IMG/VR virus record: IMGVR_UViG_3300032893_000009
Span: 32,001-96,000 of that record
Reading direction: 5' to 3' (one strand)
From: a virus
DNA: 64,000 nt
Below the pieces are notes generated by a model. That model saw nothing but the letters and a program-made list of their open reading frames with translations. It searched no databases and had not been told where the DNA came from. The translations under genes and the position numbers were made by a program. Below, one piece after another: positions 12,778 to 35,414 of this stretch; positions within the stretch are counted from its first letter, which is position 1; each line of letters opens with the position of its first letter.

Positions 12778-13059
12778 ATGGCAATGAGTAAACAGGACTT
12801 TATCGCGCTGGTGGATGCAGTTTGCACGGTTAAACGGCGTCAGGGATTGTGTGGGTCAACGGCCCTTATCAACACTTCTGGGGCTGTGGCTGTAGATGAG
12901 CTGGCTCTGGAACTGGCGCGAGTCTGCGCAGCTCAGAATCCAGCTTTCAACCGCGAGCGTTGGTTTGGGTACATCAATGACCAGTGCGGGCCGAGTGGCG
13001 GAGTGGTTGGTGGTGCGGTGCGCAACAAGCTGTTCAACGAAAGGGAAGGCACCTGCTAA
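12778..13059 (+). CDS. Hypothetical phage protein
   Basis: GGAGG RBS downstream of the promoter. Confidence 0.65.
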   Translation: MAMSKQDFIALVDAVCTVKRRQGLCGSTALINTSGAVAVDELALELARVCAAQNPAFNRERWFGYINDQCGPSGGVVGGAVRNKLFNEREGTC

Positions 13060-13075
13060 CGGTGAGGGGGATGAT

Positions 13076-13900
13076 ATGGGACGCAAAATTGTATTTCTCG
13101 ACTTCGACGGGCCGATCATCCCCTCTTTGTCTTGGCGGCGGACGCCCGGCTTCGGCAGCTACGATGACTACGATGAAGTAACGGCTGGCTACATGATTGA
13201 TGATGGGCGCGTGACGTGGCATGAGCCTACGGCGTGGCCTCCCTGTATCAAGGAGCTTAACCGCATCACTGACAAGACCGGCGCGAAGATCGTGGTCAGC
13301 TCGGCATGGCGGGCAGCTGGCTATGAGGCTGTCAGGGATGATCTGAAGCGGTGGGGTGCTACGGCTGAGGTCATTGACATCACGCCCTGCGGGTTTGTTC
13401 ACTCTCGGACTTATGGAAAGGATGCCCCTCTGCGTGGCGAGGAGATTCAGCAGTGGCTGGATGCCAACCCGGATGTCAAGTCGTTCGTGATTTTTGACGA
13501 CGACAACGACATGGCGCATCTGCGTCCGTATCTGGTGCTCACGCCGATGAGCACGGGCATCACGCGCGAACTGGCTGATCGGGCAATCCGCATTCTGGAG
13601 AGAGAGAGAGAGTTCCTAGTGGAGAGCCGCGATTACGTGCCCGGTGACCGGGTGGTGGTGGACCCCAAGGGTCTGGACCTCCCGGGCACCGTTAAGCGGC
13701 TGCGGATAGTAGATCGGGTGAGTCCGATCTACACCGTGGTGCTGGACGATCTGAAGGCCACTCCGACCGGCCTTTACTACGCCCGTGGCTTCGAGCTGGG
13801 GGCGGATAACAGTGGTAAAGAGGCACCTAAAATCGTGATTGACACACCGGGAGAGTGGTGTTCTACTAGGTGCCTCGATCCGTTTGAATACGTGGGGTAA
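13076..13900 (+). CDS. HAD-family (Swiss-Army-knife RNA-repair type) phosphatase with extra C-terminal domain
   Basis: VFLDFDG, VVSSAWR, RGEEIQQWL, FVIFDDD. Confidence 0.8.
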   Translation: MGRKIVFLDFDGPIIPSLSWRRTPGFGSYDDYDEVTAGYMIDDGRVTWHEPTAWPPCIKELNRITDKTGAKIVVSSAWRAAGYEAVRDDLKRWGATAEVIDITPCGFVHSRTYGKDAPLRGEEIQQWLDANPDVKSFVIFDDDNDMAHLRPYLVLTPMSTGITRELADRAIRILEREREFLVESRDYVPGDRVVVDPKGLDLPGTVKRLRIVDRVSPIYTVVLDDLKATPTGLYYARGFELGADNSGKEAPKIVIDTPGEWCSTRCLDPFEYVG

Positions 13901-13904
13901 GTTT

Positions 13905-15449
13905 ATGCGTGTCTCGCCCTTGGTGGACAGTTGCGACCGTCTCATCTTCAAGAAAGCTGCCAAAACCTACAACCGGCTATCCCCCGAAAATCAGCGCTGG
14001 ATCGACTTCGAAGACGTCATACAGGACGGCTTTATTGAGGCATGGCAGGCCGAGCAGCGCTATCGGCAGGACTTCGGAACCAAATACTCCACCTATCTCT
14101 ATCGCGGCCTTGATCTGCTGTTTCATGGACGCTACCACGCCCCTTTGCAGCAGCAGAAGCGTGTGGCTCGTCTCAAAGAACTGGATGCGCCGGTCCCGGG
14201 CAGCGAGGACACGTTTCCCGATCTGGTAAGTCAGGAGCCGACGCCGGAGGAAATCTTTTCCGCTGTCTCCGGGGTGCTGCAGGTCTGCCATGCGCTTCCA
14301 CCCGATGCGGTGAGTTTTCTGCTGCAGGTTGTCACCACCGAGACGGGGCAGATTACAAGACGTGGCTCGAATTCTATAGTATTGATACCGGAGGCCTGCC
14401 AGCGGTACGACGTGCGCCGGGAGGACTTGGCGCTGATTATGGTCAGCGCCTACGCCAAGTCAATGCTGGTGGAGGGTGTGGTGGCTGCTGCCGGACATCT
14501 GGGAGAGGACGATGCCAAAGTTCTGGAGTGCATCAATTGCCGGGCGTCCTTCTCTCTTAACGATGCCCGCAAGGGGCGCTACTCGGCTACCAGTCTGACC
14601 TGTCTTACGTGTCTGCGTGAGCTGCACGCAAGCGGGCCGGAACTGACTTGCTTCGGACGCCGTAAGGTGGTAAAAGGAAAGACGGTCGTGGAGGGATACT
14701 CCGAGGCCGATACCGAATGCCGTATGCACTGCCGCGACCGGGTGGCGTGCAGGCAGTTCATCGAGAAAGGGGAGAAGCGTATGACGACGGGAAATGTGGA
14801 GAATATTGAACTGGAGACTGAGGGCATCGACTTTACGGACATCGAGACTGGTGACATCGAGGTGCCAGCATCGCCGGAAGCGGCCCCCGCAACTAAGCCG
14901 AGGAAGGCGGCTGCCAAGCGTGCTGCGAAGCCTGCGAAGGTCGTAGAACCCGAGCCGGTCGCAGCCGAGCCCGAGGCACCTGTCAAGAAGGCTGTGAAGG
15001 CGGCACCCAAGAAGGCTGTGAAGGCGGCACCCAAGAAGGCTGCGAAGAAGGCAGCACCCAAGAAGGCTGCGAAGAAGCCCGTGCAGCGGTCCAAGAAGTC
15101 CACTGCCAAGATCGATCCCAAGGAAGCCAAGAAGCAGGGTCTGATCAAGCTGGACGAGCAGGGCCGTGACCTGCCCTTCAAGCCGGGTAGCGTGATGCGC
15201 TACTACCTCACGGAGGCGATGGAGCCGGGTGGCACAACCGAGGCGGCGCTGGAGAAGTTTGCCAGCAAGAACGGTTACAACCACAAGTTCCAGATGGCCG
15301 TGCTGCTTAGTGGCAAGTCGGGTGACAGCGGACGCCGTCCCTATCCGAGCACGCACACGTGGAAGGTGGAGCGGGACGAGAAGACCGGCAAGATTCAGGT
15401 CTACAACGTGCGCCGGATCGCCTTCTATGCCCGCATGGACCGGGTGTAG
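13905..15449 (+). CDS. Sigma-factor region 2-like protein fused to Cys-rich domain and histone H1-like tail
   Basis: FEDVIQDGFIEAWQAEQRYRQDFGTKYSTYL resembles sigma70 r2; CxxC pairs; KKAAPKKA repeats. Confidence 0.65.
   Translation: MRVSPLVDSCDRLIFKKAAKTYNRLSPENQRWIDFEDVIQDGFIEAWQAEQRYRQDFGTKYSTYLYRGLDLLFHGRYHAPLQQQKRVARLKELDAPVPGSEDTFPDLVSQEPTPEEIFSAVSGVLQVCHALPPDAVSFLLQVVTTETGQITRRGSNSIVLIPEACQRYDVRREDLALIMVSAYAKSMLVEGVVAAAGHLGEDDAKVLECINCRASFSLNDARKGRYSATSLTCLTCLRELHASGPELTCFGRRKVVKGKTVVEGYSEADTECRMHCRDRVACRQFIEKGEKRMTTGNVENIELETEGIDFTDIETGDIEVPASPEAAPATKPRKAAAKRAAKPAKVVEPEPVAAEPEAPVKKAVKAAPKKAVKAAPKKAAKKAAPKKAAKKPVQRSKKSTAKIDPKEAKKQGLIKLDEQGRDLPFKPGSVMRYYLTEAMEPGGTTEAALEKFASKNGYNHKFQMAVLLSGKSGDSGRRPYPSTHTWKVERDEKTGKIQVYNVRRIAFYARMDRV
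14985..15077 (+). repeat. Tandem 24-27 bp repeats encoding KKAVKAAP/KKAAKKAAP
   Basis: AAGAAGGCTGTGAAGGCGGCACCC twice plus variants. Confidence 0.85.
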
Positions 15450-31925: not shown

Positions 31926-32773
31926 TGAAGGCGCTTGTAATTGGAGATCATGGTTTTGTTGGACGGCATCTCTGCCCCATGCTGCACAAGGCGGGGTACG
32001 AGGTATATGGCACCGAGGATTTCGTGCGGAACTTTTTGCCCGACTATCACTCCCGTATTCATTACGACGTAATCGTGCATCTGGGAGCCAACATCGTGAA
32101 CGTCGATGACCGGATGAAGCTGGGCATGCACGGCTACGACGACATCCTGCTCGACTACGAGGTGTGCCGGTATGTGGAGCTGTTTCCGCCGACCAAGGCC
32201 TTCATCGCCATGTCCAGTTGCGCGGTGGATTACCCCGACGATCCCTACTGCATCGTGAAGCGCACGCTGGAGGCCTTCGCTCATACCCTGTTCAAGAAGG
32301 GCGTGCCGGTGGTGACCCTGCGCCCCTTCTCCGGCTACGGCCCTGATCAGTCCACCGAGTATCCATTCCGGGCCATCTTCGAGCGTGCCATGCGCCACGA
32401 AGAGCCGTTGACGGTGTGGGGTGGCACTCAGGTTCGGGACTGGCTGTGGATCGACGACCTGTGTGATGGCATCATGTGCGCCATCGAGTATTTCCCGCGT
32501 GGCGGCGTGTATGAGATGGGCACCGGCATCGGGACGTCGTTGCTGGAGCTGGGGGAGAGGATTGCGCGGGGCGTGGGCTACTATCCTCTGGTAATCGGAG
32601 ATACAAGACGCTGCTCTTCCTCCAATTTCCGTGTAGCGTCTCAGCGGGGGCAGCACCAGTACGGGTGGATGCCCCGGGTATCGCTGGCTGACGGCATCGA
32701 AAAGTCCGTGGCCTACTTCCGCGCGGCGGGCAGAATTCCTGCCGTACTTGAAGACGCAAAGAAAATTGTCTAG
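31925..32773 (+). CDS. NAD-dependent epimerase/dehydratase
   Basis: GDHGFVG, YCIVK (YxxxK), RPFSGYGP, VRDWLWIDD. Confidence 0.9.
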   Translation: MKALVIGDHGFVGRHLCPMLHKAGYEVYGTEDFVRNFLPDYHSRIHYDVIVHLGANIVNVDDRMKLGMHGYDDILLDYEVCRYVELFPPTKAFIAMSSCAVDYPDDPYCIVKRTLEAFAHTLFKKGVPVVTLRPFSGYGPDQSTEYPFRAIFERAMRHEEPLTVWGGTQVRDWLWIDDLCDGIMCAIEYFPRGGVYEMGTGIGTSLLELGERIARGVGYYPLVIGDTRRCSSSNFRVASQRGQHQYGWMPRVSLADGIEKSVAYFRAAGRIPAVLEDAKKIV

Positions 32774-32776
32774 TAT
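32748..32776 (+). promoter_or_regulatory. Promoter for the Y RNA-like array / Ro60 operon
   Basis: TTGAAG-N17-TAGTAT, also GACG-N14-TAGTAT; predicted +1 near 32783, the first base of unit 1. Confidence 0.7.
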
Positions 32777-32782
32777 AGTAGT

Positions 32783-32847
32783 GCGTGAGCCGAATGGCCT
32801 CTGTTCTCTGCTTAAGAAAACTCGGAGGCCTGACAACTTGCCCACGT
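32783..32847 (+). ncRNA. Y RNA-like unit 1 (minimal, 65 nt)
   Basis: GCGTG-AGCCGA...ACAACTTGC-CCACGT; inner stem GGCCTCTG/CGGAGGCC. Confidence 0.75.
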
Positions 32848-32856
32848 CAAAAGTTT

Positions 32857-32999
32857 TGCGAGAGCCGATGTGATTCTGTTCTCTGGGGGCTGCGCCCGCA
32901 AGGGCATCTAGGTTCAAGTCCTAGTTCCCCGACGTGTCGGGGAATGGTGAAATGGTAGACACACAGCTTTTGATCGGAGTCCGACAACTTGCCCTCGCA
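32857..32999 (+). ncRNA. Y RNA-like unit 2 (YrlA-like, class II tRNA mimic)
   Basis: TGCGAG/CTCGCA closing stem; variable arm GCCC-GCAA-GGGC; T arm CTAGG-TTCAAGT-CCTAG; loop-closed acceptor TTCCCCGAC/GTCGGGGAA; D arm TGGTGAAATGGTAGACAC. Confidence 0.85.
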
Positions 33000-33006
33000 T
33001 GAAGTT

Positions 33007-33095
33007 CGGTATGAGCCGGATGAATTGGGTTATCCAACTTGACAATGGATGAGACTCCAATCTCATTTATCCAGTTCAACAACTTGCCCATACCG
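33007..33095 (+). ncRNA. Y RNA-like unit 3 (two-hairpin apical domain)
   Basis: CGGTATG/CATACCG closing stem; TGAATTGGGT/ATCCAGTTCA inner stem. Confidence 0.75.
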
Positions 33096-33103
33096 GAAGG
33101 AAA

Positions 33104-33247
33104 GGCACGAGCCGACAGAGGTTGGTTATCTGCCAAACTGCAGGTCGCGGGTTCAAATCCCGCCTTCCGGGCAACCGGATGTAGCTCAGCTGGCTAGAGC
33201 AGCAGAGGCCGAAAGGCCATACCCGACTTCAACAACTTGCCCGTGCT
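33104..33247 (+). ncRNA. Y RNA-like unit 4 (YrlA-like, class I tRNA mimic)
   Basis: GGCACG/CGTGCT; AGGTC variable loop; T arm GCGGG-TTCAAAT-CCCGC; TCCGG-GCAA-CCGGA acceptor; D arm TAGCTCAGCTGGCTAGAGC. Confidence 0.87.
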
Positions 33248-33255
33248 GAAAGTAC

Positions 33256-33348
33256 GATGGGAGCCGACTGAGCTTCGTTATCTGGATAACGTGAGTTCGA
33301 GTCTCACCAGCCGCAAGGCTGTTCGGAGTTCAACAACTTGCCCCCATC
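33256..33348 (+). ncRNA. Y RNA-like unit 5 (T arm + acceptor-like hairpin, no D arm)
   Basis: GATGGG/CCCATC; GTGAG-TTCGAGT-CTCAC; CAGCC-GCAA-GGCTG. Confidence 0.8.
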
Positions 33349-33399
33349 CTAACCCGACGGAAAGCTGCAGGCCGGTTTGCTTGCAGCGTAGGAGAAACG

Positions 33400-35097
33400 G
33401 TGACACATAGCTATCTGAAGACCGCAACCAACCGCAAGGTTACCCCTCAGTCCCAGCCCATCCCCGGCAGCGTGCAGGTGGAGAACAACGCTGGCGGCTT
33501 CGTGTTTGAGATCGATGACTGGAAGCGCATGGAGCGCTTTCTGATCCTCGGTTCCGAGGGCAATACCTACTACTGCGACGAGCGCAAGATGACCGCGGAT
33601 AACGTGACCTGCCTTGGCCGGTGCCTGAAGGCCGACGGCCATCGTTATCTGAAGCTGGTCGAGGACATCAGCGTTGCGGGCCGCGCCCCCAAGAACGATC
33701 CGGCGCTGCTGGCGCTGGCCTATGCCTTTGCTCAGGGCGATGTGGAGACGCGGCGTGAGGCCGCGCTGGTGCTGCCCAAGGTGGCGCGCATCGGCACCCA
33801 TCTGTTCCACTTTGCCGACTTCGTGGACGGCATGCGTGGCTGGGGTCCGGTTCTGTGCCGCGCCGTGGCCGACTGGTATCTGGGCAAGAAGGCCGGTGAT
33901 CTGGCCAGCCAGCTGCTCAAGTATCAGGCGCGCGACGGCTGGAGCCATCGTGACCTGCTGCGCCTGTCTCATCCCAAGAGCGATGAGCCGGTGATCAACG
34001 CCCTGTTTGGCTATGCGGTCAAGGGCGCTGAGGCGTTGTCCTATGGTGAGGACGAGCCCTTGCGCTTCGTCGGCGCGGTGGAAGAGCTGAAGCGGCTTCC
34101 CAAGCCTCCCGAGGCATCGAAGTCGGACGAGCACCGGGTGGTGCAGCTGATCACCGACTATCGCCTGCCCCGGGAGTGCGTGCCCACCGAGTGGCTGAAT
34201 TCCAAGGCGGTGTGGGAGGCTCTGCTGCGTGGCATGCCCATGACGGCCATGATCCGCAACTTGGGCAAGATGTCGAGCATTGGATTGCTGGCTCCGTTGA
34301 GCAGCACTGCCCGCGACGTGGCGGCCCGTCTTTGCGATGAGGCAGAGCTGCGCAAGGCCCGGGTGCATCCGATTCAGGTGCTCATGGCGCTGGCTACCTA
34401 CAAGCAGGGCCACGGCATGAAGGGCAGCCTGAACTGGACTCCAGTGCAGGCAGTGGTGGCTTCATTGGATGCCGCCTTCTACAAGGCCTTCCTCAATGTC
34501 GAGCCGACCGGCAAGCGTTTCTATATCGCGCTGGACGTGTCCGGTTCAATGGGCGACGGCAACGTGGCAGGGACTCCGCTGACTCCGCGCGAGGCCTCGG
34601 CGGCGCTGGTCATGGTGACCATGCGCACCGAGGAGCAGTATCACATCGTCGGGTTCACTAACGGTCAGTACCGCTCGATGTGGTCCAATGTCACCGGCCA
34701 CGGTTCCGGCGTGACCGACCTGCCGCTGAATCCGAGCATGGACCTCACCACGGCAGTGCAGACGGTGAGCGGTCTGAACTTCGGCGGCACCGACTGCGCA
34801 TTGCCCATGATCGATGCCAAGGCGCGGAAGATCGAGGCGGACGTGTTCTACGTGCTGACCGACAACGAGACGTGGGCCGGTCGCATCCATCCCTGTCAGG
34901 CGCTGCGCGATTACCGGCAGAGCACGGGCATCCCGGCCAAACTGATTGTGGCCGGGCTGACAGCCACTCAGTTCAGCATCGCTGACCCCAGCGATCCGGG
35001 CTCTCTGAATGTGGTGGGCTTCGATGCCAGCGTACCGGCGCTGATCGCCGACTTCGTGACAGACGGCAAGCAGGCCGTTCAGAACATCGAGGCCTGA
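33400..35097 (+). CDS. rsr: Ro60/Rsr TROVE-domain RNA-binding protein with vWA domain
   Basis: NNAGGFVF, RFLILGSEGNTYY, KYQARDGWSHRDLLRLSHP, AMIRNLGKM, MIDAS DVSGSM, GGTDCALPM, TDNETW; AGGAGA RBS. Confidence 0.96.
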   Translation: MTHSYLKTATNRKVTPQSQPIPGSVQVENNAGGFVFEIDDWKRMERFLILGSEGNTYYCDERKMTADNVTCLGRCLKADGHRYLKLVEDISVAGRAPKNDPALLALAYAFAQGDVETRREAALVLPKVARIGTHLFHFADFVDGMRGWGPVLCRAVADWYLGKKAGDLASQLLKYQARDGWSHRDLLRLSHPKSDEPVINALFGYAVKGAEALSYGEDEPLRFVGAVEELKRLPKPPEASKSDEHRVVQLITDYRLPRECVPTEWLNSKAVWEALLRGMPMTAMIRNLGKMSSIGLLAPLSSTARDVAARLCDEAELRKARVHPIQVLMALATYKQGHGMKGSLNWTPVQAVVASLDAAFYKAFLNVEPTGKRFYIALDVSGSMGDGNVAGTPLTPREASAALVMVTMRTEEQYHIVGFTNGQYRSMWSNVTGHGSGVTDLPLNPSMDLTTAVQTVSGLNFGGTDCALPMIDAKARKIEADVFYVLTDNETWAGRIHPCQALRDYRQSTGIPAKLIVAGLTATQFSIADPSDPGSLNVVGFDASVPALIADFVTDGKQAVQNIEA

Positions 35098-35115
35098 AAC
35101 CCTCTTGCACTTCTC

Positions 35116-35152
35116 TGCCGACACTCTATCATTGGGGTGTCGGCATCTTTTT
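35116..35152 (+). terminator. Intrinsic terminator after Ro60 overlapping a sigma70-like promoter
   Basis: TGCCGACACTC/GGGTGTCGGCA stem followed by TCTTTTT; TTGCAC(35105)-N16-TATCAT(35127). Confidence 0.7.
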
Positions 35153-35165
35153 GTTCGGAGTCTTT

Positions 35166-35384
35166 ATGGCCAAGGCTCATGTCGTTGCTAAATACCTGCT
35201 GATGGGCGACACGGTGCCCCCTGCTGGCCCCACGGCCTTCGAGATGGAGGTGCGCAGGCTCAATCTGCAGCCGGATGAGTACAAGGCCTCGCTGGCCCTG
35301 AAGAAGTGGGTCAGCATCAACAGGCACCGGGTGTACGTGCCGGAAAAGCTGCTGGGCGAGTGGGGCTTCTTCGTAGACGCATAA
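35166..35384 (+). CDS. Hypothetical protein
   Basis: GGAG RBS; coding-like codon usage. Confidence 0.65.
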   Translation: MAKAHVVAKYLLMGDTVPPAGPTAFEMEVRRLNLQPDEYKASLALKKWVSINRHRVYVPEKLLGEWGFFVDA

Positions 35385-35414
35385 GCGATTCTCTACCATG
35401 AAAGCGGAGGGAGT

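Follow-up and report, generated by a model that had tools for sequence, protein, structure and literature searches.

Five RNA units beside a phage Ro60 gene

We analysed a 64,000-nucleotide stretch of viral DNA, positions 32,001 to 96,000 of IMG/VR record IMGVR_UViG_3300032893_000009 (the window), which carries a gene for the RNA-binding protein Ro60. Directly 5' of this gene lies a 630-bp region that, judged from its sequence, is very probably a tandem row of five Y RNA genes that go with the phage's own Ro60. Conservation of Y RNAs and Ro60 extends from bacteria to humans, in whom Ro60 is a lupus and Sjögren autoantigen. A sequence-only reading of this DNA had proposed that the region holds five Y RNA-like units with one Ro60-type, bulged-C handle and different inner modules, on the same strand as a canonical phage Ro60 and directly 5' of it, and the analysis bore out this description. 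Reading the window from 32500 to 35400 confirmed the coordinates given for the units, which we call U1 to U5 (Table 1). They lie head to tail at 32783-33348, all inside the 630-bp region. As is the rule for Y RNAs of bacteria and phages, they share the strand of the neighbouring Ro60 gene, whose start codon lies 51 nt beyond the end of U5.

The five units share a ground plan. Outermost is a closing stem of 5-7 bp, different in sequence in each unit. It is followed on the 5' side by A-G-C-C-G-(A/G), two or three unpaired bases and a unit-specific upper stem of 7-8 bp, after which comes the motif UUAUC in U3-U5 or UUCUC in U1 and U2 (GUUAUC and GUUCUC with the leading G). The 3' side runs from a variable module through the 3' strand of the upper stem and (N)ACAACUUGCCC to the 3' strand of the closing stem. 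In every unit G-A-G-C-C-G-R pairs with ACAACUUGCCC to give a helix with a bulged C, and the predicted folds of all five place a module distal to this Ro60-binding stem. The linkers, which the sequence-only reading had put at 7-11 nt, are 9, 7, 8 and 8 nt long.

Table 1. Window coordinates of the RNA units, their linkers and predicted arms, and the Ro60 gene with its flanking signals.
Feature	Position	Strand	Description
Promoter-like motif	32751..32776	+	AAGACGCA-N12-TAGTAT; +1 would be at about 32783, the first base of U1
U1	32783..32847	+	65 nt; minimal Y RNA; closing stem GCGUG/CACGU, handle, UUCUC motif, small loop
U1 upper stem		+	GGCCUCUG/CGGAGGCC
Linker U1-U2	32848-32856	+	CAAAAGUUU; single-stranded
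U2	32857..32999	+	143 nt; Y handle and permuted class II-like tRNA mimic
U2 V arm	32894-32905	+	
U2 T arm	32908-32924	+	
U2 acceptor-like hairpin	32925-32944	+	closed
U2 D arm	32947-32962	+	3 bp
Linker U2-U3	33000-33006	+	UGAAGUU; single-stranded
U3	33007..33095	+	89 nt; Y handle and 10-bp hairpin module; no tRNA features
Linker U3-U4	33096-33103	+	GAAGGAAA; single-stranded
U4	33104..33247	+	144 nt; Y handle and permuted class I-like tRNA mimic
U4 variable loop	33142-33146	+	AGGUC
U4 T arm	33147-33163	+	
U4 acceptor-like hairpin	33164-33181	+	closed
U4 D arm	33184-33200	+	
U4 extra hairpin	33207-33218	+	GAAA
Linker U4-U5	33248-33255	+	GAAAGUAC; single-stranded
U5	33256..33348	+	93 nt; Y handle, T arm and capped hairpin
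U5 T arm	33291-33307	+	
U5 hairpin	33308-33321	+	GCAA-capped
Ribosome-binding site	33390..33394	+	AGGAG, 5 nt 5' of the Ro60 GTG; by reading
Ro60/Rsr orthologue	33400..35097	+	565 aa; GTG start; TROVE ring and vWA domain
Terminator-like hairpin (intrinsic)	35116..35155	+	13 pairs (hairpin 35116-35145), then T run UCUUUUUGUU; terminator scan

The units carry different modules. Folding them singly, a check proposed with the sequence-only reading, gave z-scores of -2.75, -1.80, -3.63, -2.89 and -3.34 for U1 to U5. U2, U4 and U5 each contain a strict T arm (5 bp, G53-C61, UUCRANY; loop UUCAAGU in U2), as do 0/205 reverse-complemented control units. The regular expression for D arms was non-specific, with 24 matches in the reverse-complement controls, and we therefore relied on the T arms and on alignment to the Rfam model of YrlA (RF02553). 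U4 runs from the variable loop and T arm through the acceptor-like hairpin, U-A and a 4-bp D arm to a 4-bp equivalent of the anticodon stem, which joins the handle; a looser pattern also puts its D arm after the T arm. The order T arm, closed acceptor-like stem-loop, D arm is given in U4 by the YrlA alignment and in U2 by the fold only. The minimum-energy fold of U2 has a four-arm junction, in which the long V arm and the D stem of 3 bp are class II tRNA-like. In the predicted folds the acceptor-like stems of U2 and U4 have 7-8 bp. U5 resembles the 'top half' of a tRNA, without a convincing D arm, and U1 and U3 have no tRNA features and the same handle as the other units.

The protein encoded next to the array is a typical Ro60, matching Pfam TROVE (3.1e-42) and vWA_Ro60 (4.6e-58) and PHROG 850, 'RNA-binding protein' (2.1e-77). 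The closest solved structure is Xenopus laevis Ro60 (1yvp, 7.7e-123, residues 16-555 aligned), followed by human RO60 (9nen, 2e-122) and Deinococcus radiodurans Rsr (2nvo, 1.7e-111). It is at most 46% identical to any of 358 phage-database homologues, and homologues with 67-73% identity were also found (P0002-P0005).

Conservation of the handle within the array and beside other Ro60 genes

Both the window and the full 118,881-bp genome contain the 11-mer ACAACTTGCCC exactly five times, always within the array. With up to one mismatch it occurs 7 times in the window against 1.28 expected, a number reached in 0/100 shuffles. GAGCCGR, with which each unit had been said to open, does head all five units; alone it is not enriched (27 matches in the window, 27.4 expected). 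The published Ro60 motif GNCGAAN0-1G has an exact match in U1 (PMC4201824).

We aligned the five units with MAFFT, blind to structure (alignment A1). The closing stems listed in the sequence-only reading, and the inner (upper) stems, do pair: 98.8% of 81 cells are paired, and both sides have changed in 9/18 pairs, which 0/500 column shuffles equalled. When the 3' partners were slid by 1-3 columns, pairing fell to 27-47%. Helix 1 is paired in 100% of cells in the five units, and its closing pairs covary. RNAalifold predicted 17 pairs on A1, in the closing stem, the upper stem and the conserved helix (its two G-C/C-G pairs), with compensatory changes in nine of the 17; two G.U/A-U pairs beyond the bulged C were not predicted. 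The within-array covariation claimed earlier is thus real. That the repeats are chance similarity or short protein-coding frames has a negligible probability. Open reading frames of 41-71 aa do overlap the array region on both strands, but the motif count lies above all shuffles, the changes are compensatory in RNA stems and not codon-wise, and the family model described below (R2) gives the units E-values of 1e-8 to 3e-14.

A covariance model built from U1-U5 (R1), which scores U1 at 51.8 bits, was searched in 80 viral and 80 metagenome loci encoding Ro60 relatives of 41-58% identity. Outside the window it matched 98 times in viral and 75 times in metagenome loci at E<=1, every time on the Ro60 strand, so that a search of TROVE-gene flanks, as suggested with the sequence-only reading, did recover same-strand relatives. 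We aligned the 81 best R1 matches (E<=0.003, 61 sources). In these relatives 95.0% of 1453 cells are paired (66.7% when shuffled; helix 1 93.7%), both sides have changed in 424 cells (111 when shuffled), and slid controls are 39-46% paired. This alignment was fitted to the model and is biased towards structure; the slid controls and the strand bias are independent of the fit.

The 81 relatives gave a second model (R2), used at E<=0.01. It found 220 matches in the window and the 80 viral loci (5 and 215), 175 in the 80 metagenome loci and 211 in 80 bacterial loci from Myxococcota, Alphaproteobacteria, Chloroflexota, Armatimonadota and others. All 601 matches of the 240 Ro60 loci are on the Ro60 strand, the phage's own genome has exactly 5, and 396 kb of unrelated viral contigs has none at E<=1. 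The window units score 47.5, 50.4, 58.9, 69.9 and 66.9 bits from U1 to U5. The handle consensus of the relatives is G-(G/A)-G-C-C-G-(A/G) ... GG-UUA(U/C)C ... ACAAC-UUG-Y-Y-C. The element GG-UUA(U/C)C, just past the upper stem, appears as strongly conserved as the Ro60-binding helix and is also present in the nematode stem-bulge consensus. Within its UUAYC motif, U, U and C are invariant in 81/81 relatives (alignment A3, columns 27-35), although this conservation may be inflated because the alignment descends from a model containing the motif.

Direct searches for close relatives gave little. A scan of viral contigs with the single protein found no close relative of this array, and in a phage-database DNA search no record covered at least 80% of the query, the 30 matches listed all lying within the Ro60 frame. 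An identical 903-nt piece spanning the array is present in one other sample and offers no informative variants. An exact 15-mer scan gave 115 loci with a single match each. None of the 80 that we fetched was scored by R2; we therefore took these to be chance matches and reused them as a negative control.

The T arms of three units, and the true tRNA gene clusters that adjoin many related Ro60 loci, might suggest a phage tRNA cluster that has decayed or rearranged into units with no Ro60 role. We consider this highly improbable. By ARAGORN, neither the window nor the whole genome contains a tRNA or tmRNA. The best-conserved parts are the handle and GUUAYC, which are not tRNA parts and are nearly invariant in the 81 relatives; the handle stems covary, and U1 and U3 share the handle without tRNA features. 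Moreover, matches occur only beside Ro60 genes and only on the Ro60 strand. The anatomy of the units, their covariation, their family membership by model and their linkage to the gene were all computed directly.

Adjoining tRNA clusters were seen at many viral Ro60/Y RNA loci (the flanks of L138, L135 and L131, with up to 15 tRNAs in L138), and a permuted tmRNA adjoins one viral locus (L147:6460-6684); tRNA clusters and tmRNA are absent from the window's phage. Some units with a Y handle contain tRNA-like domains in normal, unpermuted order (L127:4975-5117, L124:1795-1918 and also L184:2535-2668). In two of these ARAGORN calls a tRNA within the Ro60-type handle, tRNA-Ile(GAT) at L127 5020-5094 and tRNA-Cys(GCA) at L124 1830-1902.

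Y RNAs had been said to come typically one or two to a locus. This premise did not survive. After four duplicates were dropped (L148, L123, L166, L197), 76 distinct viral loci remained, and within the fetched flanks 15 had no unit, 9 had one, 14 two, 16 three, 12 four, 4 five, 3 six, 2 eight and 1 thirteen. Half of them (38/76) thus have at least three units and 10/76 at least five, and these counts are lower bounds because some flanks end early. Bacterial loci reach 9 (L365), 8 (L314, L305) and 7 (L349, a Methylobacterium isolate). With so many loci at three or more, the five units here are no longer exceptional, and arrays are the norm beside Ro60 genes. The largest array has 13 Y RNA-like units in 2.3 kb 5' of a viral Ro60 (L182, identical to L271, 686-2981), with a tRNA-Ser gene in between. 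Unit length in the relatives is bimodal, 60-80 and 120-150 nt, and the strict T arm is found in 55/78 long and 0/97 short units. A literature search found no description of arrays with more than three units, some reviews on Y RNA numbers aside.

Transcription, processing and possible roles

The promoter-like motif AAGACGCA-N12-TAGTAT occurs twice in the window (32751-32776 and 2922-2947) against 0.01 expected, and looser copies stand at three more + strand sites, in the regions of window 36802, L288:6488 and L288:11723. At all five + strand sites, each apparently intergenic, AAGACGCA is followed about 12-13 nt on by TAGTAT, TATAGT or TACAAT. Read from this phage-specific motif, the transcript would start at about 32783. 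A phage-encoded protein with sigma-70 region 2 (window 13839-15449) could read the motif. The terminator that the sequence-only reading placed after Ro60 was found by the terminator scan, as a hairpin followed by a T run, and the same scan gave no terminator-like site between the units and the Ro60 gene.

The source record is a virus genome with direct terminal repeats, rated complete. The window is clearly phage DNA by its gene content: its PHROG matches, of which nearly all are on the + strand, include DNA polymerase, helicases, primase, clamp loader, UvsX, SbcCD, tail fibre and endolysin. The only other RNA-repair-type gene that we noticed in the phage encodes a 334-aa protein (window 12896-13900, +) whose HAD domain is that of 'Swiss Army Knife' RNA repair proteins (Pfam HAD_SAK_2, 2.6e-24). 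Elsewhere in the genome, a 1417-aa frame (L288:13668-17921, genome 108668-112921, +) combines phage portal and LAGLIDADG homing-endonuclease domains and may be an intein or an endonuclease fused into the portal gene. Among the large left-end genes, a 1186-aa protein (L286:6238-9798, genome, +) has a zeta-toxin-like kinase domain (Pfam Zeta_toxin, 5.1e-19).

The shortness of the linkers, which leaves no room for promoters, and the lack of a terminator-like site before the gene suggest a single precursor RNA. One transcript would begin at about 32783, take in all five units and the Ro60 frame and end at the terminator (35116-35155), and would be cut in the purine- and AU-rich linkers. We regard the four linkers as candidate endonuclease processing sites. 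Among 89 viral-array linkers of at most 30 nt the modal length is 8-9 nt, A+T content is 68% (47% in the units) and AAGTT (AAGUU in the RNA) occurs in 12, against 1.7 expected by shuffling.

The array might instead remain uncut, as a long and structured leader on the Ro60 mRNA, and act in cis, either through feedback on Ro60 translation or stability or as one scaffold on which several Ro60 rings assemble. Such a leader would be in keeping with units and Ro60 that are probably first one RNA, given 7-9-nt linkers and no intervening terminator-like site, with the short gap between the nearest unit and the Ro60 start (median 69 nt in 51 viral loci) and with the higher-order Ro60-RNA assemblies reported for the phage phiLo (PMC12135203). 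A leader cannot work from downstream of Ro60, however, and this is where units are found in 12 of the 62 unit-bearing viral loci. Upstream units occur in 51 loci (164 units, against 41 downstream), and the gene itself contains none. The neighbouring Y RNAs of Salmonella, Deinococcus and M. smegmatis build up as discrete RNAs bound to Ro60 (PMC4201824). The shared length and AU-richness of the linkers, and their enriched AAGUU, are also what would be expected of processing sites. It seems improbable, on balance, that the array acts as a leader.

Several results weigh against reading the region as a Y RNA array that serves Ro60. At Rfam gathering thresholds the whole window has no match. In E-value mode, run on 32600-33500 and listed to E<=10, there was no match to the vertebrate Y_RNA family, and the two families that did match remained below threshold. 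U4 matched YrlA at 37.3 bits (E 2e-6), across all 114 model positions and with the T, AS and D helices in order, but the gathering score is 69. U3 matched RF01656, the nematode stem-bulge RNA and Y RNA homologue, at 28.1 bits (E 0.0019) and U4 at 21.3 bits, where the gathering score is 38. These RF01656 alignments run end to end and locate the bulged C, GGUUAUC and the CAACUUG strand, and two related phage units found by R2 exceed the RF01656 gathering score. The Rfam comparison suggested with the sequence-only reading thus links the units to these families below threshold. U2 has no YrlA match (E<=10), and its tRNA shape is a predicted fold with a modest z-score.

The handle itself has one discordant position. 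All five units have an A.C mismatch between position 2 of GAGCC and the middle C of GCCC, where 69/81 relatives have a pair (G-C 45, A-U 21, G-U 3) and only two others have A.C. Since the flanking stems have fully diverged among U1-U5, the shared mismatch looks selected and may reflect co-adaptation with the phage's Ro60. The sequence-only reading had placed +1 at U1 by a promoter. A generic sigma-70 scan found no + strand promoter, and the TTGAAG-17-TAGTAT of that reading matches only 8/12 positions; the phage promoter-like motif, from which a start at about 32783 would follow, was derived from five sites. The sequencing runs listed as containing this DNA are three wetland DNA runs and no RNA run. 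A search of the phage genome for RtcB found none; with neither RtcB nor tRNA genes, the genome names no partner.

A Y RNA array remains by far the best explanation, and from it we infer a start of transcription, processing, Ro60 binding, partners and a role. The ends of each released RNA would pair into a stem with the bulged-C helix (5' GAGC-C-GR / 3' UUGCCC), with the upper stem above it and then GUUAUC or GUUCUC. Homology with the Ro-Y RNA complexes of frog and Deinococcus suggests that this shared handle would dock on the outer face of the Ro60 ring. The inner modules would face away from the ring and set the contacts of each particle, through a permuted class II-like mimic, a permuted class I-like mimic, a T-arm 'top half', a long hairpin or a minimal loop.

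By analogy with the RYPER complex of Deinococcus, the tRNA-shaped modules may tether Ro60 to host tRNA-recognising enzymes and to 3'-to-5' exoribonucleases such as PNPase, a role to which we give slightly less than an even chance. If so, the decay and quality control of structured RNAs, tRNAs above all, would be redirected during infection. It is a more doubtful suggestion that the five modules are a deliberate panel on one handle, made up of class I and class II look-alikes, a 'top half' and two plain hairpins. Equally doubtful is that such a panel provides decoys for host tRNA-cleaving or tRNA-sensing anti-phage systems, or traps them with Ro60 and an exonuclease. A decoy role against tRNA-targeting defences has also been raised for Salmonella YrlA (PMC7790460). 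A Ro60-like protein of phage Bas63 is reported to counter the ppl defence system (preprint, bioRxiv 10.1101/2024.10.10.617714), which makes the counter-defence idea testable. If the panel is real, a phage without tRNA genes covers the structural classes of host tRNAs, and Ro60 arrays would be a general, programmable form of RNA-based counter-defence. What probability the tether and decoy ideas leave is shared by gating of Ro60 and functions yet to be thought of.

The locus is a compact test case, with a promoter-like motif, five RNAs, Ro60 and a terminator in 2.4 kb of a complete phage. The shared-handle model, which picks up short Y RNAs missed by tRNA-domain searches, may matter more than the locus. 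Beside the Ro60 genes of viruses and bacteria, rows of 3-13 units are usual, and 'one protein, many adaptor RNAs' thus becomes the default view for further tests.

Comparison with known Ro60 and Y RNA systems

The array adds a further example to the known Ro60/Y RNA system and does not represent a system of a new kind. Y RNAs have a modular build, in which the 5' and 3' ends form the Ro60-binding stem, and a circularly permuted tRNA layout has been described for YrlA; in Salmonella and M. smegmatis, YrlAs are substrates of tRNA-modifying enzymes (TruB, DusA) or of RNase P cleavage (bioRxiv 10.1101/312249). In the rsr-yrlBA-rtcBA operon of Salmonella Typhimurium (tRNA-like domain of YrlA, PDB 6cu1; PMC4201824, bioRxiv 10.1101/312249), the terminal Ro60-binding stem also has a GNCGA-type motif and the units also lie beside Ro60 on its strand. 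U2 and U4 share the permuted tRNA-like domain with YrlA, and U5, with a T arm only, is like YrlB. The window has five units rather than two, in a phage cassette without RtcB or RtcA. Its best YrlA score is about half the gathering threshold, U2 has its long V arm and 3-bp D stem, and all handles have the A.C mismatch.

Arrays in phages have been described on a smaller scale. With a tRNA-domain model, Chen et al. (2014) listed 355 putative YrlAs close to Ro60, spread over 254 bacteria and 22 phages, with one or two per bacterium in the first part of their Table S1, and stated that further Y RNAs had escaped their bioinformatics (PMC4201824). Their Table S2 gives one YrlA each for mycobacteriophages and three in tandem for the Caulobacter phage CcrColossus. 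CcrColossus resembles our phage in having a Ro60 with several same-strand, tRNA-like Y RNAs within 1 kb, which there lie 368, 661 and 874 bp from the gene. As that search used a tRNA-domain model, short units without tRNA features, such as U1 and U3, would have been invisible to it. The Thermus phage phiLo also has Y RNA-like genes directly 5' of its Ro60; its two RNAs, Yrl1 and Yrl2, bind that Ro60, and a ternary complex with host PNPase forms in vitro (NAR 2025, PMC12135203). The phiLo TROVE protein is distant from ours (E 8e-4, where cellular Ro60s give 1e-111 to 1e-123), there are two RNAs rather than five, and the term 'tRNA-like' does not occur in that paper.

Our working functional model is the Yrn1/RYPER system of D. 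radiodurans (Ro60-Y RNA-PNPase), in which the handle binds the ring and another module tethers the exoribonuclease. Four small RNAs are encoded 5' of rsr in this bacterium, and Yrn1, with a different module order and sequence, is reported to have evolved independently of the YrlAs (PMC4201824). The phage units differ from Yrn1 in having no recognisable PNPase-binding module. With the nematode stem-bulge and vertebrate Y RNAs they share the bulged C of the lower stem, the upper stem followed by GGUUAUC and the 3' strand CAACUUG. Those RNAs are eukaryotic, transcribed singly by Pol III and without tRNA-like modules, whereas the window units, which fall below the family threshold, join the same handle to five different modules in one row beside a single Ro60 gene.

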